DNA of 64,000 nt from Candidatus Brocadiia bacterium (GCA_050015075.1 JBEKCB010000006.1:15811-79810), one strand, 5' to 3'. Counted from the stretch's first letter, positions 2,511 through 25,074 are shown. Numbers and translations: made by a program. The notes: generated from the sequence alone by a model not told the origin.

Positions 2511-4481
2511 CTACCGCTTGGCGATGCCCGAGACCTTGAACCTGACGACGCGCAACCCGCAGACCTTTCCGAAGTGCGCCACGTCGCTCTGAAGCCGTTG
2601 CATCGCCTGCCGGTTAAAAGGGGAACCATTCATATGGAGCGGGCGCGTGAGCGTCACCTCGGCCTGGGTCAGCGCCACCGCGAGCGCGATATCGCCCCAT
2701 TCGAGGAACCCGGGCACGTGCACGCCCAGCGAGAAGGGATTCTTTCCAACGGTGTACAGGTAGCTGCCCGGCATTCCGGTCAGGTTCAATCGCGCGAACC
2801 CTCCGTTCACCGCCGCGCAGAAAAGCGCCGCCAATGCGCCTTCGCCCGTGCCGGCCAGGCTCAGCGGGCCTTTGCTCCTCTTCCGCAGGAATGACGCCAT
2901 CAGTTCGATCCCGCGGGCGCGTTCGCCCATGAATGTCCTGCCCATCCACAGGTACGCCCGGGTCGTGTCGTGGTGAATCGCCGTATTGTGCTCCAGGTCG
3001 CCGAAGCTTCCTTCCGTGAAGAGCAGCACTCCCTGGCCGCGCGCCAGCGCCTGGTCCACCAGCGCCGGGTCCGGCGAGCCGGTTTTTCCTTCCACCTTGG
3101 GGATGATGGTGTAACCCGCCTTCGCATCCTTCGGGACGATGAGCAGAAGCGCGAAATGTTCCCCGCTCACGGTGGAGACCACCATCCGTTGCCAGGTGCG
3201 CCCCTCGATGCTCTCCGGCCCCAGGTCGCGCACGTCCCTGAGAATCAGCGCGTCGCCCATGTGCAGGATCCGGCGCAGCTCTTTGCGCTTGGCCGCCGGG
3301 CTCATGGACTTCTTCGCGCGCGCCTCGGCAATCAACTCCTCTCCGCGTTTGCGGCAGAAGACGGCAATGCTCGGAACGATCGGCGGACGCTTTCCTTTCC
3401 GGAAGCACATGAGCTGCTCCTGCGGCAGCGCACGGAAAAATTTCTCCGGTCGCGGCGAGCCGTCGCCGACGCCCTTGAGCCAGCGGTCGAACCAGCCGTA
3501 CATCGCCTCGCGGACCTCGGTCCAGTAACCGTGCGGGAGATTGAAGACCTGGTAGGTCAGTCGCTCATCCGCTCCCAGCGCCTGGTACACCGGCCGCGCC
3601 CCCACGAACGAGCGGAGCATCTCCGCCGGATAGAATGACGAGTTGGTATCCTTGAGCGCGTTGCAGATCTTCAGCGCCCGCGGCGCGATCAGCGCCAGGA
3701 TGCCGGCCATTTCGGTGAGCAATACCGCGCCCGGCAGCGTCTCGCAGATGCAGTTGGAGCCGGCGACGTAAGCCTCGAACGTTCCCACGCTCACCACCGG
3801 CACCGCCGCCGCGAGCCGCTCGTCCATCGCCGCGACCCACATCGTCTGGTTGCCCCCGCCGCTCGCGCCGGTGACGCCGATCCGGTCCGCGCGGACGCAC
3901 GGAAGCGATCGCAGGAGGCTGACCCCGCGCATGTTGTCCACGATCTGCATCCCCATCAACGTCTCGCCGATGTCGTAAACCGAAGTGCCCAGGTGAGCGC
4001 CGTGGTACTCGTAATGGCCGTGCGTCGTAGCGCGCTCGCCGGCGCCGAAGGCATCCACGCTCAGACAGACATACTCCTCGCGAGCAAGGTGGTGTGCGCG
4101 TCCCTGCACACGGTCCGCCAGGTGGCCTTCGCCGAAATGCCCGTGCACGCTGAGCACCGCCGGGAACGGCCCGGCGCCGTCGGGGACGTAGAGACAACTG
4201 GTGACGTAGAACCCCGGGCGACTCTGATAGATGACCTTGTCAATTCGATAGCCGTCCATCCGGATCGTCCCGAGTATCCTCATATCCAGGTCCAGCGTGT
4301 CATCCGGCGCAGTCCCGAGGAGTTCCCAGAGTCGCGCGCGCAGCGTCCGGCGCCAGGGCTCCCATTCGGCGCGGCTCGCCGGAAGGCGGCGCTCGCAGAA
4401 CATCCGCGTCGCCTCCAGGCTCATTTGAGTATGGGCGTGCGAGATAAAACCCTTGTCCCAGTCGGCAAGCGATCTTTCCAT
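2511..4481 (-). CDS. alpha/beta-hydrolase (acetyl-xylan-esterase / dienelactone-hydrolase-like) protein
   Basis: 656 aa ORF. It has the nucleophile elbow GVTGASGGGNQTMW (G-x-S-x-G), an upstream LSVHGHFGEG oxyanion-type segment and an AAGGAA SD. Confidence 0.6.
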   Translation of the reverse strand: MERSLADWDKGFISHAHTQMSLEATRMFCERRLPASRAEWEPWRRTLRARLWELLGTAPDDTLDLDMRILGTIRMDGYRIDKVIYQSRPGFYVTSCLYVPDGAGPFPAVLSVHGHFGEGHLADRVQGRAHHLAREEYVCLSVDAFGAGERATTHGHYEYHGAHLGTSVYDIGETLMGMQIVDNMRGVSLLRSLPCVRADRIGVTGASGGGNQTMWVAAMDERLAAAVPVVSVGTFEAYVAGSNCICETLPGAVLLTEMAGILALIAPRALKICNALKDTNSSFYPAEMLRSFVGARPVYQALGADERLTYQVFNLPHGYWTEVREAMYGWFDRWLKGVGDGSPRPEKFFRALPQEQLMCFRKGKRPPIVPSIAVFCRKRGEELIAEARAKKSMSPAAKRKELRRILHMGDALILRDVRDLGPESIEGRTWQRMVVSTVSGEHFALLLIVPKDAKAGYTIIPKVEGKTGSPDPALVDQALARGQGVLLFTEGSFGDLEHNTAIHHDTTRAYLWMGRTFMGERARGIELMASFLRKRSKGPLSLAGTGEGALAALFCAAVNGGFARLNLTGMPGSYLYTVGKNPFSLGVHVPGFLEWGDIALAVALTQAEVTLTRPLHMNGSPFNRQAMQRLQSDVAHFGKVCGLRVVRFKVSGIAKR

Positions 4482-4578: not shown

Positions 4579-6147
4579 TCAGACGCCCTGGGCGGCGGCG
4601 CCGTCCGAGCGCGCCGACTCGACCAGGCGCTGTTTCCGATTCCAGAGGCGCTCGCTGAGCGAGACGTGATAGACGTGCGGATTCACGAACCGCTTCACGC
4701 CCGGGTCGAGCCGGTCCACGTCCGCCTTTCGCCGCGCGCGCATCTCCTCGATCGTCGGCGAATCACCGACGCGCCGGCCTTCCTCCAGGACCTTCACCAG
4801 CAGCGGTTCGACCGTCTGGATTTCCTCGCGGGCCAGGACCCTGCGCTTGGAAGGTTCCGTCGGATGCTGCAGGATGACCTGCGCCATCTGTCGGGGATCC
4901 TCGTCGGGCAGGCCGAGCAAGTCGGCCGTAGCCAGCCCGCGGCGGTCATAGAGCCGCCAGACGCCCTTTTCGCCGGGGTTGAGAGTCTTCTCAGGCACCT
5001 CGGAGAGTTTGATCGCGGGCGCCCACTGCTTCCCGTCGTGCACCGCGGCGAGCTTGTAAACGCCGTCGAGCGCGGGCGCGCCTTCGGAGCTGATGAGCCG
5101 CGTGCCGACGCCGAACATCAGGCGGCGGATCAGCCGGCCCGGATCCATGCCCCAGCGAGGCGCTTCCTCCTCGATCTGCGTGAGGATCTGCCAGATGACA
5201 AGCTCGTCGAGCTGGTTCGAGAGAAGGATGCACGGATCGGGAAAGCCCGCGGCGTCGAGCATCTTAGCCGCCTGGATGCTCAGGTACGCCAGGTCGCCCG
5301 AGTCGAGGCGGATGCCCGCCGGCCGGTGTCCCTGCCGGCGCAGTTCCTCGAAGACCCGGATGGCGTTCGGTATGCCGCTGCCGAGCGTGTCCACCGTGTC
5401 CACGAGCAGCAGGCAGTCATCGGGATAGACTTCGGCGTAGGCGCGGAATGCGCCGAGTTCGCCCTCGCCGAGGGCCATGAAAGCCTGCACCATGCTGTGC
5501 GCGTGCGTGCCCTTGGCCGGGAAGCCGAGCGCGCGAGAGATGCCGACGTTCGAGCTGAAGTCCGCTCCGCCGATCAGCGCCGCCCGTGTGCCGGCGTTGG
5601 CGCCCCGCTCCTGCGCGCGGCGCATGCCGAACTCCACCAGCGGCTGCTCATGCGCGCTCTGCCGGATGCGCGCCGCCTTGGTCGCCACCAGCGTCTGGTA
5701 GTTGAGCTGGTTGAGCAGCGCGGTCTCGAGGATCTGCGCCATGGCCAGCGGGCCCTCGACCACGGTGATCGGTTCCTGCGGGTGAACCACGCGGCCCTCG
5801 GGGACCGCGGCCATGCTGATCCCATCGAAGCCGCCGTTCGAGGCCAGCCAGCCCAGGAAGTCGTCGCCGAAGAGCCGCCGGCCCGTCTGGCCCGCCTGGC
5901 CGCGGAGGTACTCGATATCCTCATTCCGGAACCGGGTCTCGCGCATCCAGTCCAGGAGCCATCCCAGGCCGGCATTGACGCAGTACCCCGCGCGATGCGA
6001 ACCGTAGTCGGGGTAGTGCCGGAAGAAGTGCTCGAACCTGGCGCGCTTCTCGTGCAGGCCCTTCCGGAAGTAGAGCTGCGCCATGGTCAGCTCGTACATG
6101 TCCGTGAAGAGGATGCCTTCGGCCATGCGCCGGTCAGCCGAGTTCAT
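4579..6147 (-). CDS. pncB: nicotinate phosphoribosyltransferase
   Basis: 522 aa. The N-terminus [16 protein letters not shown] and the [11 protein letters not shown] motif are typical of NAPRTase. Its ATG overlaps the TGA of the upstream gene (ATGA at 6144-6147). Confidence 0.85.
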
Positions 6148-8411
6148 GGCGCGGAGCCCTTCCGGCCAAGAACCTCTCCGGTCTGCACGAACACGGCGCC
6201 GGCCCGCGCCATCTCCTCTCGGGCGGCGGCGATGTCGCCGGGCTTGACTTCGATGCCGCGGATAGCGTCCTCGATTACAAAAACGTCGAAGCCCAGCTTT
6301 CGCGCGTCCAGCACAGTGGCTTTCACGCAGTACTCCGTCGCGAGGCCGCCGATCCAGAGCCGCCGGATTCCCCGGGCCTTCAGCGCCGCCGGCAACTCCG
6401 GCGCGTCAAAAGCCGAGTAGGCCTCTTTGGCCGGATCGGTCGCCTTGGAGACCACCAGGTCAATCGCCCGAGTATTAAGATCGGGATGAAAGTCGGCGCC
6501 CGGCGTGTTCTGCACACAGTGGTCCGGCCACGGCCCGCCGGCGCGTTTGAATGAGCAGTGATCGGCCGGATGCCAGTCGCGCGTGGCCACGCGGAACAGC
6601 TTCTTCACGCGCAGCCACTGGTTCAGCGGCGGCACAACCTCGTCGCCGCGCGGCACCGGCAGCGCTCCGCCGGGGCAGAAATCCCGCTGCACGTCCTCGA
6701 GGACCAGAGCATCGGTCGCCGTGTTGATCCGCGCAGTTCCGGCGGTCTGCCGAATATGTTCCGGCCGGCCGGTCGCGCCGGCGGCGGGGTTTTCCGACGC
6801 GCCCTGATGGTCCGGCACGCCGGACGCATGCAACCGTATGGCGGCGATCAAGTCCTCGGACGGTCCTCCTTTAGTCAGGTAGGCAACCGCGCCGGCGTCG
6901 CGCAGCGCCGTCGCCACGTCGTTGTCCGTGTGCATGGACAGCCCGATCACCTTGATGTTCGGGCTCGCGGCCAGAATTCGCTTCGTGGCTTCCACGCCGT
7001 TCATCCCAGCGCCGAGGTTGATGTCCATGATGATGACGTCGGGCTGAAGTTTCGCGGCCAGTTCGACGGCGACGGGGCCGTCGGCGGCCTGGCCAACGAC
7101 CTCGATATCCGGCTCAAACTGGATGATGCCCGCGAGTCCTTCGCGCATGATCTTGTGATCGTCAACAATGAGGACGTGGCGAACGGCTGTCTTATCGCGC
7201 ACGATGATCTTGCCGGCTTGCTCTTCCGTTCCAGCCGTCTCATCCCCAATCCGGGCGTGCGGTTGCGCGGCACCGACGGGGATCGTCAAGGTGATCGTGG
7301 TTCCTTTGCCCGGCGCGGTCGCGATGTACATCTCGCCGCCGATGTGGGCCAGCCTCTGCTCGATGCTGAACAGGCCGAAGCTGATCTCGTCGGCGCGGCG
7401 TTTCTTGAGCAGGTCGGGATCGAACCCCTTGCCCTGATCGCGGACGATCAGTTTGATGCGGTCGTCTTTCGTCCGCAGCAGCATCACCTGCGCTTCCAGG
7501 ACGCCGGAATGTTTGACGGCGTTCAGGAGCAGTTCGCGCACGCACTCGAAGAGGAGAAACCGCGTCGCTTCCGTGGCCGGCTCGGCCTTGTTGTCCGCGT
7601 GCAGATGGACTGCGAACTGATTCGTTTGCTGCGTGCGGGAGGCCAGCCAGTTCAGGGCGCCGATCAACCCCGCCGTGTGGAGCACGGGCGGGCTCAATTC
7701 GACCGCCAGCGAGCGGGACGCCTCCAGGGCTTCCTTGAGAATGCCGTCCAGACCCTTTGCCGCGGCTTGTCTCCGATCCGGATTGTTGTCGCGCTTCAGC
7801 CACTCCACCTGCATTCGTGCCGCGACCAGCAATTGCTGGATGTGGTCGTGCAGAATGGTGGACAAGCGCTTGCGCTCGCGTTGCTCCGCCTGGGTCAGTT
7901 CCGTCGCCAGCGCGCGGAGTTGGTCGGCCTGCTGTCGCACTTCTGCGGTTCGTTCAACCACACGCTGTTCGAGCGATTGATTCAACTCGCGCAACTTCTC
8001 CTCGATCTGTTTGCGTTCGATCGCGTAGCGTATGGCGCTGGCGACGGACCGGGCATCGGCGCTCCCCTTGATGAGGTAATCCTGCGCTCCCTGGCGGATC
8101 GCCTCGGCGCCGGTCGTCTCATCGTCGGCGCCGGTCATGATGACGATGGGCAGTCCGGGGAATTCGGTCTGAACGCGCGTGAAAGTGGCAAGGCCCGTGC
8201 TGTCCGGTAACCCCAGGTCCAGCAATACCACGTCGAACTTCTGTTCGCGCAGTTTCGCCATCGCCGTGTCGAGCCGTTCCGCCACCATCACCTCATAGCG
8301 CGCACCGCGACCCTGGCGCAGGCCGTGCTGGATAAGATGGGCGTCCGAGGGGCTATCTTCGACGAGCAGTACTTTGGCCGTCATAGTGTCCAATTCAGCG
8401 GCATCCTTCAA
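6144..8411 (-). CDS. hybrid sensor kinase / response regulator fused to a C-terminal nicotinamidase (REC - HisKA_3 - HATPase_c - REC - PncA/isochorismatase domain)
   Basis: 755 aa.
- REC1: [10 protein letters not shown]...[11 protein letters not shown].
- Coiled coil, then H-box [13 protein letters not shown] (NarX/DegS type).
- ATPase: NAVKHSG...DQGKGF...[16 protein letters not shown].
- REC2: [13 protein letters not shown]...[15 protein letters not shown]...
- C-terminus: [19 protein letters not shown]...[12 protein letters not shown]...VVSKATD...GGLATEYCV, which matches nicotinamidase catalytic Asp/Lys/Cys and metal-site motifs.
The TTG start at 8411 overlaps the upstream stop. An alternative ATG lies at 8384. 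Confidence 0.8.
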
Positions 8412-8854
8412 CGTCTGGCGGGCAGCGCCACGACCGTGAGCCAGAAACTCTCGATGGATTTCACGATTTCCAGAAAGCGCTCGAAGTTAACCGGTTTGGT
8501 GACATAGCAGTTGGCGTGAAGCTTGTAGGAACGAATGATGTCCTCTTCAGCCTTGGAGGTCGTCAGGACGACCACCGGAATCATTTTGAGGTCCGGGTCG
8601 TCCTTCAGCTCTGCGAGGACTTCGCGCCCGTCTTTACGCGGGAGGTTCAGGTCGAGCAGGATCAGGTCCGGCTGCTCCGCCTGCGAATAGGCGCCCTGGC
8701 GCCGCAGGAACTCCATGGCCTGGACGCCGTCCTGCACGTGGAAGACCTTGTTGGCCATCTTGGCCGTTTTCAACGCGGTCAGAGTCAGCTCGGCGTCGGT
8801 GGGGCTGTCCTCGACCAGCAGAATCTGAATCGGTCGCACGGTTGTCGGCGTCAT
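8408..8854 (-). CDS. single-domain response regulator (CheY/Rcp1-like receiver)
   Basis: 148 aa: [14 protein letters not shown]...[15 protein letters not shown]...PVVVLTTS...[12 protein letters not shown] overlap with the upstream kinase stop (8851-8854). Confidence 0.85.
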
Positions 8855-11784
8855 TCGTCGCTCCTCTTGTCAAAAATGGTGAAGAAGAAAGTCGTTCCCT
8901 CTCCGGGCTGCGACTCAAACCAGATTCTACCAGAATGCCGTTCAACAATCTTCTTGCACACGGCAAGGCCGATCCCCGTGCCGGGATACTCAAGGCGCGA
9001 ATGGAGTCGCTGAAAGATCAGAAAAATCCGGTCATGATACTTCGGCTCGATGCCGATCCCGTTGTCGCGGACGCTGAATACCCATGCGTCTTTCTCCCGC
9101 CTGGCCCCGATGTGGATGTCCGGCGCGCGTGGACCGTGGAACTTGATGGCGTTGCCGACGAGGTTCTGCAGCAATTGAACCATTTGGGACGGGTCGGCCG
9201 CGATCGTCGGCAGCGGATCGCTGCGAATGACCGCGCGGCTCGCCTCGATGGCGGCGCTCAGGTTGCCCACGGCGTCGTCCAGCGCCTGCTTCATGTCCAC
9301 AGGCGTGCGGGCTCCGCCCCGGGAGCCTACGCGCGAGTAGGTCAGCAGGTCGTTGATCAGCGCCTGCATCCGTTCGGCCCCCTCGACGACATGGCCGATG
9401 TACTTCTGGCCGTCGGCATCCAGCCTGTCCTTAAGCTGCTGCTTGAGAAGGGACGCGAAGCCACCCACGGCCCTGAGCGGCTCCTGGAGGTCATGGGAGG
9501 CGACGTAGGCAAACTGCTCAAGGTCCTTGTTGGAGCGCGACAACTCGGCCGCGGTCTTCTCCAGTTCCGAGGTCCGCTGCTTGACCAGTTCCTCCAGTTG
9601 AAGGCGGTATCGGGCCAACTCCTGTTCCATCTTGTTCCGCTCTGTGACATCGCGGGCGGCGGCGAAAACGCCTTGCACTTCGCCGGCCTCATTCCGGTAA
9701 ATCGTGGCGTTGTACAGGACATCGGCGGTGCGGCCGGCACTGTGACGGACCGTCAGAGGGTAGTCGCGCACAAAACCGTCCGATAGCACCTTCCGATACC
9801 CCGCGCCGGCCCTTTCGGGATCGGTGAAGTAGCTGGAGAAATCGGTGCCGATCAGACGCTGGCGCGGAATGCCCGTGGCTTCCTCCGTCGCCTTGTTCAC
9901 GTCGGTGATCTTTCCGTCAGGGCTGATGGTGACCAGCGGGTCGAGGCTGGCTTCGAGCAGGCTGCGGGCGTAGAGCGAGGCGACGCGCAGTTGGGCCTCC
10001 ATCCGGTTGTGTTCAGTCACGTCGCGGGCGGCGGCGAACACGCCCTGCACCGCGCCCGCTTCGTTGCGATAAACCGTGGCGTTATACAGCACGTCGGTGG
10101 TGCGGCCGGAGGCGTGGCGGACGGTCAGCGGATAATCGCGCACCGTGCCGTCGCGCAGCACTTGCTGGTAACCGGCGTTGGCCTTCGATGGCTCGGTGAA
10201 GTAGTCGGAGAAGTGGGTGCCGACGAGTTGCGCGCGTGGCACACCCGTCGCCGACTCCGTCGCCGCGTTGACGTCGGTGACGTTTCCATCGGGGCTGATG
10301 GTGACCAGCGGGTCAAGGCTGGCTTCGAGCAGGCTGCGGGCGTAAAGGGCTGTCGCGCGCAACTCCTCCGTGCGCTCAACCACACGCTTTTCGAGCGTCA
10401 GGTTCATCTCGCGCAACGCCTCCTCGGCGGACTTTTGCCGGGTGATGTCGGTGCTGACTTCCAGGATGTCCAGCGGCTTGCCGCGTTCATCGCGGCGCAG
10501 TGCCCAGAGGAGCGCCACAGGAATCCGGGTCCCGTCCTTGGTGCGGCGAGTCACTTCGCCTTCCCAGCGGCCGTTCAACTCCAGATCGGCGTGAATCTGC
10601 TCCAGCGGCCGGTCGAAATGCGTCTGCAGCAATTCTGAAGCAGGCTTGCCCTCGGTCTCCTCGGCATCATAGCCATAAAGCCTGCGGTTACCATCGCTCC
10701 AGCGGATGATGCGGTCATCCAGACTCCGGGCCAACAGGTTGCCGAGGTTCACCAGGGCCAGTTCCTTTTCCTGCGCGGCGCCGACGACTTCGGCTACGCG
10801 GGCGCGGCGCAAGCGCTCCGCCAGGAGGCTCAGGAAAATGCCTGCGCCGGCAAAGATGCCCAACGATACAGCGTCGGCCGCATGGGCGATACTGAACGAC
10901 CCTGTCGGCGCAACGAACCAATAGTCGGCTGCCAGCACGGTCAGGACCGTGGCCACGACTCCTGGTCCGCCGCCGGCGACCGTCGCCGCCAGGAGGACCG
11001 CCGGATAGAAGGTGATGAACATGGGCACAGGCCCGACATGCTGCTCCAACCAGCTTTTCAGCCAGGCGGCCAGGGCAATGACCGCCGCCGCGAAGGCGTA
11101 CCGGACGGCGGTTCCGGGCCATTTCCTGCCGGCGCCGCCTAATCGCAGATTACGATCTGCCAGCCGCACCGTGCGTATGAGGATGACCCCCGCAACCCCC
11201 AGAATGGCCAGCGACAGCAGCACGCCCAAGCCCAGCGTCAGCATGCTTTGCCGGGCGACCTTGCCGGCATCGCGACTCCGCGCGTCCAGCAAACGGTTCT
11301 CACGCTGCTCCATCACCGCGACGAGGTCCCGGATTTCGTCCGTGATGCGCTCGCCTTTCCCGCTGCTAATGATCGGCAAGGCCGCCTCCAAGCCGCCTTC
11401 CCTGCGATGCTGGATGAAATCCTTAAGAATATCGAGTTTTTCGCTGCAAAGCTTCTGAAGTTGCTCAAGGTCTCTCTGTTGATCGGGGTTGTCCCGGGTC
11501 AAGTATTTGACCGAGGCGACGTCGTTCTGAAACTCCGCGATGGCCGAGTCATACGGCGCCAGGAATTGCGCATCGCCGGTCAGAACAAAGCCTCGCGCGC
11601 CGGTTTCGGCCATCATGACCACCGATTGAACGCGCTCCAGGTTCTGCAGCACCTCGTGAGTATGGTCCACCCAGTCCTTGCTCTCGGTCAACCGCTGGAT
11701 AACCAGGTAGGATCGGACGCCCACGAAGCTGATGATCAGCAGCCCCAGGATTAACGCGACGGTGATTTTCGCTCCAAGTTTCAT
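8851..11784 (-). CDS. multi-domain sensor histidine kinase (CHASE3-like N-terminus, membrane DUF4118-like segment, three PAS domains, HisKA, HATPase_c)
   Basis: 977 aa. It has an N-terminal TM segment plus a CHASE3-type region ([15 protein letters not shown]...[12 protein letters not shown]). A membrane block follows ([21 protein letters not shown]...DYWFVAP). There are three PAS units, the last two near-identical. The H-box is [16 protein letters not shown], with N and G boxes NLVGNAIKF and DNGIGI...GTGIGLAV. Confidence 0.85.
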
Positions 11785-12443: not shown

Positions 12444-12805
12444 TGGTGGAGGCGGGGGGAATCGAACCCCCGTGCCGTGGCACTTCAACAGAAGCTTCTA
12501 CGTGTGTGTTCCATCATTTGTCTTTTCTAGACCCTCAGGACTCCGATGGACAGGATTCCAGTTGGACCCGAGCCCGGACTTATCATTTCCCCACAACCCC
12601 GCCAGGCAGAAGGTTGCAAGTAGCCTGCTCTTGTCGCCCATTCCGGCCTCGCAGGCAAGACCGGATGAGCGTCGCAGCTAATTAGGCTGCGAGAGAGTAG
12701 TGCGTTTCAGCACTTAGTGTTTTTGCCGGGTGTTTAACGAGGCCTCCCGACAACCTCGACACGCCACTCCTGCATCATATTGCCCGGTCGAAGCCTTTCG
12801 CCCCC
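12444..12805 (-). ncRNA. ssrA: tmRNA (transfer-messenger RNA)
   Basis: On the minus strand the 5' end GGGGGCGAAAGGCTTCGAC pairs with the 3' end ...GGGGGTTCGATTCCCCCCGCCTCCACCA. This gives an acceptor stem with the G3:U identity pair, a T-arm GTTCGATTC and a terminal CCA. The internal tag ORF GCT GAA ACG CAC TAC TCT CTC GCA GCC TAA encodes AETHYSLAA, a canonical ..LAA degradation-tag ending. Confidence 0.92.
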
Positions 12806-12936: not shown

Positions 12937-13272
12937 TCACTCGAGGAGCACGTTCAGCTTCTGGAGAACGTCCTGCACGGCGGCTTCGGGCAACTCACAG
13001 CAGAGGGTTGCTCTTCTGGCGTGCCAGTCGAGACTCTTGACCTGATCGGAAAGCACGACTCCCGTGAGCTTGAGGCCGGTCGGTATTTGGACTTCAAACG
13101 GATAGCCCTTGGCGTGACTGGTCACAGGGCAAAACAAAGCCAGGCCGACCTTTCGGTTGTACGCCTCGGGCGACAGAACCAATGCGGGACGACGCCCTAC
13201 CTGCTCGTGACCCGCTTGAGGATCGAATGCCAGCCAGACTATGTCGCCCCGTTTCGGACAATAGGCGGCCAT
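12937..13272 (-). CDS. mazF: type II toxin, MazF/PemK-family endoribonuclease
   Basis: 111 aa: PKRGDIVWLAFDPQAGHEQVGRRPALVLSPEAYNRKVGLALFCPVTSHAKGYPFEV...VVLSDQVKSLDW is the classic PemK/MazF pattern. Confidence 0.88.
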   Translation of the reverse strand: MAAYCPKRGDIVWLAFDPQAGHEQVGRRPALVLSPEAYNRKVGLALFCPVTSHAKGYPFEVQIPTGLKLTGVVLSDQVKSLDWHARRATLCCELPEAAVQDVLQKLNVLLE

Positions 13273-13514
13273 TACAACGTCTCCCGGCCCACAGGCATGC
13301 CCGCATCAATTTCTCGGTGCAGATTCTTCTTCGTCACATTCTTGAGCAATTCATCAAGCCGATAACGCCCGCGTCGAGTCCGGGCGACCACGATCTTTCC
13401 GTCTCGAACCGAGATGTCCACCGCGGAACCGGAGGTCAGCCGGGCATCCCTCGCGTACGAGCGGGGAATCCGCACCGCCAGACTATTACCCCATTTCTGA
13501 ACTTTCGCAACCAT
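13272..13514 (-). CDS. mazE: type II antitoxin, MazE/AbrB (SpoVT) family
   Basis: MVAKVQKWGNSLAVRIPRSYARDARL...VDISVRDGKIVV is an AbrB/MazE swapped-hairpin motif. ATG at 13514 has a GAGGA SD; the track's longer TTG start at 13526 is rejected. Its stop overlaps the mazF start by 1 nt. Confidence 0.85.
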   Translation of the reverse strand: MVAKVQKWGNSLAVRIPRSYARDARLTSGSAVDISVRDGKIVVARTRRGRYRLDELLKNVTKKNLHREIDAGMPVGRETL

Positions 13515-13614
13515 GTCTGTCCTCAATAATGTATCTACAATGAGGATACACTACGCATCGCGATAACGCAAGCCGCGCCGGCCCGCCACTGTCGCCTGCC
13601 GCGCCTCCGCCGCC

Positions 13615-24637: not shown

Positions 24638-24658
24638 CCGACGAGTTGTTGCAACGCT

Positions 24659-24843
24659 CACAGGCGCCCGCGAGGGCGTGAAGGGAAGACGGTGAAATTC
24701 CGTCGCGGTCCCGCCGCTGTGATCGGGGACGAAAGCCGCATCGCGCGCAGGAAACTGCGCGCGCTTGGCCACTGTTCGGGGCGATCCCCGGACGGGAAGG
24801 CGCGGCAAGTAGGATGATCCGAGAGCCAGAAGACCTGCCTGTG
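24659..24843 (+). promoter_or_regulatory. cobalamin (AdoCbl) riboswitch aptamer
   Basis: P1 pairs CACAGGC (24659-24665) with GCCTGTG (24837-24843). Conserved core GAAGGGAAGACGGTGAAATTCCGTCGCGGTCCCGCCGCTGT, then GCCACTG...GGGAAGGC, then B12 box GAGCCAGAAGACCTGCC. A possible bulged terminator-like hairpin with a U-rich tail lies near 24941-24985. Confidence 0.88.
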
Positions 24844-25074
24844 CGCGCTTCGCTTCATGTCGCATGGCCCGCTCGCAGAGCGGGACATGCTAAGGCTCCG
24901 AGGCTGGGCTGATGAAGATGCGGCTGGGCGGCCACACCGATTGCTCCCCTGCGCCTTCGAGGCAAGGGGCATATTGTTGTTCCAACCCGCGCGCTCCATC
25001 CCTCGACCTCCGCCTCATGAAGTAACCCCGTCCGCGGCCTCCGGAAGAGAGTCCGCCATGGAAAGGAGAGGGAC

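Follow-up and report, generated by a model that had tools for sequence, protein, structure and literature searches.

Why does a nicotinamidase stand at the end of a signalling kinase, and does the kinase control it? We asked this question of a 64,000-nt stretch of DNA from a Candidatus Brocadiia bacterium (class name by NCBI naming; GCA_050015075.1 JBEKCB010000006.1:15811-79810), referred to here as the window. Positions count from its first letter, and L and P numbers are labels given here to nucleotide loci and proteins, respectively. A 755-aa open reading frame (ORF) at 6144..8411, on the minus strand like all features of its operon, encodes a receiver domain (REC1), HisKA_3, HATPase_c, a second receiver (REC2), a linker, and the nicotinamidase PncA, as determined from the ORF, Pfam, and motif mapping. 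An initial annotation, made from the sequence of the window, had described one ORF with these domains, a NarL-type second receiver, and an isochorismatase module, and the Pfam domains bear out this description; it had further proposed that salvage of nicotinamide adenine dinucleotide (NAD) may be gated by phosphorylation. Our data indicate that the fusion is genuine, evolutionarily young, and confined to a small group of uncultured peat-bog Planctomycetota, and that its product is probably a tethered enzyme coupled to the kinase at the level of expression.

The fused nicotinamidase domain appears catalytically complete

The PncA domain spans aa 563-755 (6147..6725). Pfam places Isochorismatase (PF00857) at aa 568-741 with 98.7 bits against a cut-off of 27, and the C-terminal 190 aa match PncA of Pyrococcus horikoshii (1ilw/1im5) with E=1e-59 and approximately 60% identity to 1ilw. 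The nicotinamidase signatures quoted in the initial annotation, including the one with the catalytic Cys, all align with 1ilw/1im5; these are LEDVQRDF (aa 571-578), RDWHPADH (aa 611-618), VSKATD (aa 654-659), and GGLATEYCV (aa 688-696). The concern that the catalytic triad might be missing did not materialise, since D573, K656, and C695 align with P. horikoshii D10, K94, and C133 and are conserved in two other fused loci, L001 and L088. At the metal site, D612, H614, and H631 align with P. horikoshii D52, H54, and H71 within RDWHPADH...PDHC, where the further ligand H618 aligns as well. An Asp-His-His metal site separates nicotinamidases from other isochorismatase-family hydrolases. The domain scores 162.4 bits against the NCBIfam equivalog NF008623 (E. 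coli-type PncA; cut-off 174), a shortfall that fits the shorter archaeal-type form of PncA, which is the form matching 1ilw. Together, these alignments indicate a complete nicotinamidase with every catalytic and metal residue present.

The fused PncA is the only PncA within the window, and its pairing with pncB is found in all fused and stand-alone relatives. Stand-alone PncAs of known structure (P. horikoshii 1IM5/1ILW; M. tuberculosis 3PL1) have the same PF00857 fold family, Asp-Lys-Cys triad, Asp-His-His metal site, and pncB pairing. The protein described here differs from them in that PncA has no start codon of its own and forms the C-terminal domain of a 755-aa signalling protein.

The N-terminal part is a hybrid kinase whose relatives end after REC2

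REC1, the input receiver (aa 13-130, 8022..8375; Pfam Response_reg), has a complete phospho-acceptor set when mapped onto CheY (E18, D19, D65, T93, K115). It is followed by the HisKA_3 dimerisation/phosphotransfer domain (aa 179-244, 7680..7877; PF07730), with His188 in the H-box LHDHIQQ, and by the HATPase_c catalytic domain (aa 287-379, 7275..7553; PF02518), with the N-box LLNAVKH, the G1 box DQGKGF, and the G2 box GKGTT. REC2 (aa 413-526, 6834..7175) was identified as a NarL-type receiver by Pfam (Response_reg, E=2e-47), NCBIfam, and CheY mapping, and carries the acidic pair D417 and D418, the acceptor Asp D463, S492 at the Thr/Ser position, and K514. Thus the phospho-acceptor His, the N, G1, and G2 boxes, and the conserved residues of both receivers that mark a HisKA_3 hybrid histidine kinase are all in place, and we regard the kinase part, judged by these motifs, as a typical member of a kind abundant in Planctomycetota.

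The ORF begins with TTG at 8411, overlapping the TGA of the upstream gene. Both the TTG start and the 4-base overlap are conserved in L001 and in an unfused locus, L168, and Met10 is Leu in L001. Public gene callers picked the ATG at 8384 instead, which gives a protein of 746 aa (P0271).

The initial annotation placed PncA where a DNA-binding helix-turn-helix domain would normally sit. While the PncA module is indeed complete, no helix-turn-helix domain was replaced: approximately 120 closest kinase relatives were surveyed, and they end 4-20 residues after REC2 without an output domain, so that PncA was added behind a terminal receiver. Hybrid HisKA_3 kinases with a NarL-type receiver at the C-terminus (e.g., P0272, P0129, P0148), which are common in Planctomycetota and neighbours, combine a REC, PAS, or GAF input with HisKA_3, HATPase_c, and REC and are 60-80% identical to aa 1-530 of the window protein. 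Their C-termini lie 4-20 residues beyond the DLIAAIR motif that closes REC2, whereas the window protein runs 225 residues further.

The fusion recurs in independent assemblies

We found the in-frame junction in at least six assemblies (the window and at least five others) from different samples and pipelines, as three sequence types that are 80-100% identical. L001, a Candidatus Brocadiia metagenome-assembled genome, has the operon in full, including the fused ORF (754 aa, approximately 82% identical; P0375, NCBI MGO8705199.1), and a metagenome contig, L088, contains the fusion at approximately 95% identity over the kinase-to-PncA part. P0271 (L173) is identical to the window protein, called from Met10. 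Additional fused copies in the protein database are P0369 (NCBI MGD1000085.1) and P0273 (L172), and P0370 and P0371 (the latter being L174) are 810-aa fused variants with a PAS input. In NCBI the fused proteins go under the general name 'isochorismatase family protein'. The three sequence types share one linker length and differ within the linker by 9-14 amino-acid substitutions and no insertions or deletions.

The sequence types differ at the N-terminus. In L088 and L174, a PAS domain takes the place of REC1, with the swap point in the coiled coil just before HisKA_3, and the genes upstream of the fusion are STAS, STAS, RsbW-like, and RsbU-like (SpoIIE), i.e., a partner-switching operon. In L174 (21-2204), this partner-switching cassette has the PAS-type fusion as its fifth gene, which shares 4 bases with the preceding RsbW/SpoIIE-type phosphatase gene. 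It is unusual in itself for a protein that joins histidine kinase and receiver to stand directly behind a partner-switching module, as in L174. Downstream, L088 and L174 have the same pncB, 656-aa hydrolase, DegT, and creatinase-like genes as the window.

The fused gene is a recombination mosaic. REC1 of the window is nearest to L001 (92% amino-acid identity, synonymous divergence (dS) 0.26), the kinase core is nearest to L088 (dS 0.06-0.13, compared to 0.5-0.75 to L001), and the PncA part is approximately equidistant from L001 and L088 (dS 0.27-0.33).

The linker derives from former non-coding DNA

The linker comprises 34 aa (aa 529-562, 6726..6827), and its origin was traced by alignment to an unfused kinase locus and to stand-alone pncA genes. 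P0272 (L168-L171) is an unfused kinase orthologue that is 80% identical and lies in the same operon of a histidine kinase, a 148-aa receiver, and a hybrid kinase. Its C-terminus is RLHAPGAP, directly before the stop, and its tail reads ...DLIAALRLHAPGAP, then stop. Past an 18-nt insertion, the window linker DNA aligns with the L168 kinase tail, its TAG stop, and its 3' untranslated region (3'UTR); z is 6.6-10.4 for the three fused sequences, and 0/1000 shuffles reach the score. The L168 TAG stop stands opposite GAA/GAG in the fused sequences.

The far end of the linker meets a former free gene. The nearest relatives of the PncA domain are free-standing proteins of 196-202 aa that are 83-91% identical and are encoded in pncA-pncB pairs with unrelated upstream genes. 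At the junction, a stand-alone pncA reads AGG CAG GAG ACC ATG GGC...CGG ATC AAC while the window reads CGG CAG ACC GCC GGA...CGG ATC AAC; the pncA Shine-Dalgarno GAG is deleted, and the ATG is now GCC. A derivation of the linker from the pncA 5'UTR was considered and rejected, since except for the last approximately 20 nt there is no significant similarity (z below 2) and the linker matches the 3' end of the kinase gene. These alignments indicate that the linker is former non-coding DNA, made up of what used to be the tail, stop codon, and 3'UTR of the kinase gene and, after these, of the old ribosome-binding region and start codon of pncA. Since the Shine-Dalgarno sequence and ATG that pncA once had are gone, the fusion is probably the only form in which PncA can be made.

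In L168, the hydrolase-DegT-creatinase block is inverted and flanks the kinase operon at its opposite end. Behind the unfused L168 kinase we looked for a gene encoding an ancestral output domain and found only a frameshifted remnant of a single-domain receiver (L168 9600-10032), which is called as a 70-aa fragment only and is followed by approximately 1.1 kb with no called gene. The position of this remnant is taken by pncA-pncB in the fused loci. One metagenome sample, 3300041955, holds three states: the unfused kinase operon (L168), a free pncA-pncB pair (L083), and the PAS-type fusion (L174).

These comparisons suggest the following course of events. In an ancestor of the peat-bog group, a pncA-pncB pair would have come to sit directly downstream of a REC-HisKA_3-HATPase_c-REC hybrid kinase gene. 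Mutation of the kinase TAG stop to GAR would then have let translation run through the former 3'UTR into pncA, and pncA would afterwards have lost its own Shine-Dalgarno sequence and ATG.

Some loci resembled fusions and were rejected as such. L018, L030, L034, L042, L094, and others, genome and metagenome hits in which tblastn matches seemed to extend into REC2 or the linker, are stand-alone PncAs with N-terminal extensions or spurious open frames. Among the free-standing relatives, P0001 (L081 9001-9609) ends in a divergent tail (...GPKGRCHELG), and its overlap with pncB is 14 bases rather than 4, which points to a small frameshift at the gene junction in the L081 lineage.

PncA and REC2 are constrained while the linker is near-neutral

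Given that the linker appears to descend from non-coding DNA, we compared the ratio of nonsynonymous to synonymous substitution rates (omega) along the protein. Between lineages, omega is 0.11-0.25 for PncA and 0.03-0.20 for REC2, and it is 0.16 for REC1 compared to L001. The linker, over its 34 codons, has an omega of 0.57-1.38 compared to 0.03-0.21 for its flanks (Fisher p 0.002-0.02), with no insertions or deletions among the three lineages. These values indicate that PncA and REC2 are under purifying selection while the linker evolves near-neutrally, and PncA appears translated and functional in all fused lineages. We found neither elevated nor relaxed selection on PncA after the fusion (omega of 0.22 in fused and 0.21 in stand-alone lineages).

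A neighbour-joining tree built on the PncA domain places the fused copy of L088 (2386-2961) with the stand-alone copies of L081 and L082 and not with the other fused copies, despite all fused copies sharing one linker. This suggests either allele exchange between fused and unfused loci or a tree that is poorly resolved, being built from only 180 codons.

An AlphaFold2 model predicted both REC2 and PncA with local confidence (pLDDT) above 90 (PncA 91-98, with alternating strands and helices), and the linker with pLDDT below 50 (aa 534-554), i.e., disordered. There was no confident docking of REC2 and PncA in this model (global confidence score (pTM) 0.64), which was run with three to four fused sequences. 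Across linker omega, non-coding origin, pLDDT, pTM, the unchanged PncA constraint, and the intermixed alleles, we therefore found no sign of a constrained or co-evolved receiver-enzyme connection.

Nicotinamide salvage is coupled to a signalling operon

The gene that comes next after the fusion in every fused locus is pncB. In the window it encodes a nicotinate phosphoribosyltransferase of 522 aa (4579..6147; NCBIfam NF006695, 608 bits against a cut-off of 469, and Pfam), and, as the initial annotation stated, the TGA of the fusion overlaps its ATG, the two sharing the 4 bases ATGA at 6144-6147. Compared to L001, pncB is 97% identical with an omega of 0.13. Because pncB is translationally coupled to the fused PncA, the first two salvage steps, from nicotinamide to nicotinate and on to nicotinate mononucleotide, appear to be expressed within a signalling operon, with PncA present 1:1 with the kinase and tethered to it. 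The gene arrangement thus indicates coupling at the levels of transcription, translation, and stoichiometry. In L172 (10244-11793; ENA ERZ25039512), the pncB after the fusion is split into genes of 341 and 99 aa while the near-identical L001 has an intact 519-aa pncB; the split reflects either a frameshift error or a pseudogene.

The product of the fused gene would be a cytoplasmic, presumably dimeric kinase in which a disordered tether of 34 residues connects the terminal receiver to a nicotinamidase that is unaltered and catalytically competent. We infer that coupling of expression is the main functional consequence of the fusion. The fusion may persist largely because reversion would require a new stop codon, ribosome-binding site, and start codon together. 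Since several simultaneous changes are needed to undo the fusion once the Shine-Dalgarno sequence and ATG are lost, its survival does not by itself speak for a benefit. The fusion may affect the enzyme in some crude way, sterically or through dimerisation, while an evolved allosteric connection between phosphorylated REC2 and the active site is not indicated.

Alternative explanations of the fused gene

The initial annotation named a missed stop or frameshift as an observation that would undo the case for a fusion. Such an artefact could join two separate genes, and it would agree with the stand-alone state of the closest PncA relatives and with the metagenome origin of all the available sequence. 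The same in-frame junction nevertheless occurs in at least six assemblies with 9-14 substitutions and no linker insertion or deletion, and pncA evolves at an omega of 0.11-0.25 despite having no start codon of its own. Because the fusion recurs in independent assemblies with a diverged in-frame linker, and because PncA is under purifying selection in this state, our data exclude a sequencing or assembly error. A different question is whether most PncA is made free, from an internal start, so that the fusion protein is minor or irrelevant. Two conserved in-frame TTG codons, Leu521 and Leu527, are candidate starts present in the window, L001, and L088, and an AGGAGG-like sequence, AAAGGAGGA, lies 13 nt before the TTG of Leu521. 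This sequence, however, consists of the codons of the conserved receiver motif T-K-G-G, and the conserved KGG codons suffice to explain it. The ancestral, well-placed Shine-Dalgarno sequence and ATG were lost rather than kept, the frame is preserved across the linker in all lineages, and with no stop between the two parts the full-length fusion is made whenever the kinase is translated. We therefore consider internal initiation improbable as the main source of PncA. Even less probable, in our judgement, is that PncA acts as a C-terminal sensor, i.e., as an input which informs REC2 and the kinase of how much nicotinamide or nicotinate is available. Signalling proteins are known to contain sensor domains derived from enzymes, and nothing in our data supports this role directly. 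The triad and metal site are fully retained under a constraint equal to that of free enzymes, the linker is disordered, and the translationally coupled pncB argues for a metabolic role.

The most serious alternative is that the nicotinamidase is phospho-gated, such that its own HisKA_3 kinase, under REC1 or PAS control, phosphorylates REC2, and REC2 controls PncA post-translationally, either through CheB-like occlusion of the active site by the unphosphorylated receiver or through phosphorylation-driven dimerisation. The kinase core and REC2 keep every phosphotransfer residue and are under strong purifying selection. Several further points speak for gating and count against a merely tethered enzyme. 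The kinase-REC2-PncA-pncB block stayed intact while its input was swapped from a two-component REC1 to PAS and a partner-switching operon; a block kept through such a swap reads as a used module and is compatible with PncA as a true regulated output. CheB provides a precedent for regulation through a flexible, poorly conserved linker. The linker statistics rest on 34 codons, and the failed docking is weak evidence since the AlphaFold2 run had no co-evolution signal to draw on. Receivers on ordinary metabolic enzymes are, in addition, a recognised trend (Galperin et al. 2018, PMC5847659). We nevertheless found no support for the proposal of the initial annotation that phosphorylation gates NAD salvage. 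The linker is of non-coding origin, near-neutral, and predicted to be disordered, no confident interdomain arrangement emerged (pTM 0.64), and the unchanged PncA constraint together with the intermixing of fused and stand-alone alleles in the tree argues against a co-evolved interface. Moreover, REC2 of the unfused orthologues works without any output domain, and the fusion is young and confined to one clade. It is thus possible but doubtful that the nicotinamidase is a true phosphorylation-controlled output, through which a two-component or partner-switching signal switches the first step of nicotinamide salvage on or off post-translationally. A tethered, essentially constitutive enzyme with expression-level coupling accounts better for the sequence data, and we assign this reading a probability of roughly 60%.

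Comparison with known receiver-enzyme proteins and PncA fusions

CheB, which consists of a REC, a flexible linker, and a methylesterase, is the usual model for steric inhibition that phosphorylation relieves. It resembles the fusion in having a receiver N-terminal to a hydrolase on a flexible, poorly conserved linker. CheB is ancient and widespread and has a defined REC-catalytic interface, whereas the fusion is young and found in one clade, with a linker derived from non-coding DNA and no predicted interface. Furthermore, the receiver here belongs to a hybrid kinase, as its terminal REC, rather than to a separate response regulator. Receiver and enzyme likewise share one polypeptide in response regulators with enzymatic outputs, such as REC-GGDEF (PleD/WspR), REC-HD-GYP (RpfG), and REC-PP2C.

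Metabolic ('Rosetta-stone') fusions of PncA mostly join it to enzymes of the NAD pathway, whereas the partner here is a signal-transduction protein. Other PncA fusions in our representative search were PncA-PncB, PncB-PncA, QRPTase-PncA, PncA-NAD synthase, NUDIX-PncA, and PncA-DUF302 (P0244, P0258, P0190, P0204, P0161, P0171, P0241).

The initial annotation took this regulatory arrangement to be apparently undescribed for PncA, and this holds in the papers searched: we found no report of a REC-nicotinamidase or REC-isochorismatase protein in the literature. Outside the clade, we found none in species-representative genomes, in metagenome contigs, or at the top of a search of 1.84 billion representatives, although the absence is soft since the searches went by sequence rather than by domain architecture and two of the protein searches behind it missed the known fused family. 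A word-index search with REC2-PncA returned stand-alone PncAs only, while the fused proteins surfaced with a kinase query, so this search provides no evidence of rarity. In the exhaustive representative search, long hits and hits with two matching stretches were checked by Pfam and proved to be REC-REC proteins or PncA with a metabolic enzyme, none being REC-isochorismatase; this negative is weak, as the known fused family was itself missing from the results with the representative library, presumably because unfused or fragmentary sequences stand for it there. The receiver-nicotinamidase fusion is thus apparently undescribed, while receiver and enzyme in one chain is an already known principle.

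If phospho-gating were true, a receiver domain would for the first time be seen to gate the recycling of an NAD precursor directly, and an environmental signal would change the flow of nicotinamide into NAD salvage within seconds. A 3'UTR would then have given rise to the regulatory link in the recent history of one clade, with all evolutionary intermediates still at hand. A phospho-regulated PncA would also be a new output class for two-component signalling and, for bacterial NAD salvage, the first described control point that acts post-translationally and depends on a signal. To our knowledge, the known regulators of NAD salvage (NadR, NiaR, NrtR) all act on transcription.

Even if unregulated, the fusion is an unusually clean natural record of the birth of a multidomain protein. 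Related peat-bog populations preserve the unfused kinase operon, the free pncA-pncB pair, the stop-loss fusion with a 3'UTR-derived linker, and the later input swap, which makes ancestral-state reconstruction and direct tests of a brand-new fusion straightforward. The practical scope is narrow because the fusion has so far been seen in one clade of uncultured Planctomycetota only; its main value is to offer a candidate for signal-controlled NAD salvage that can be tested, and a well-documented fusion by stop-codon loss.

The surrounding operon and other features of the window

The fusion is the third of four translationally coupled, tightly packed genes, a placement that follows from the 4-base overlaps of the upstream genes, and a conserved hydrolase gene then follows. 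The first gene of the unit encodes a sensor histidine kinase of 977 aa (8851..11784) in which the ORF and Pfam indicate CHASE3, DUF4118, three PAS, HisKA, and HATPase_c domains. Its stop overlaps the start of the second gene by 4 bases, and orthologues are found at the corresponding place in L001 (870 aa) and in L168, an unfused locus (1128 aa). The second gene encodes a single-domain receiver of 148 aa (8408..8854; Pfam Response_reg, E=5e-21) with a 4-base overlap with both neighbours, and is 89% identical to that of L001 with an omega of 0.22. The conserved neighbour downstream of pncB in the fused loci is an alpha/beta hydrolase of 656 aa (2511..4481; Abhydrolase_7/AXE1-like by Pfam), which has the same position in L001 and L174.

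The length of the CHASE3-PAS sensor kinase differs among these close relatives (window 8851-11784, L001 5371-7983, L168 4175-7561). The differences reflect gain or loss of near-identical tandem PAS units, and a 107-aa block of the window protein is absent from L001.

Rfam and tRNA scans found nothing in the operon or next to it. Further upstream, approximately 660 bases from the sensor kinase of the operon, lies a tmRNA gene (tag peptide AETHYSLAA), directly adjoined by a MazE/MazF (PemK) toxin-antitoxin pair (12444-12805 and 12937-13526, both on the minus strand). Elsewhere in the window, a cobalamin riboswitch (Rfam RF00174, 95 bits) is found at 24645-24856 on the plus strand.

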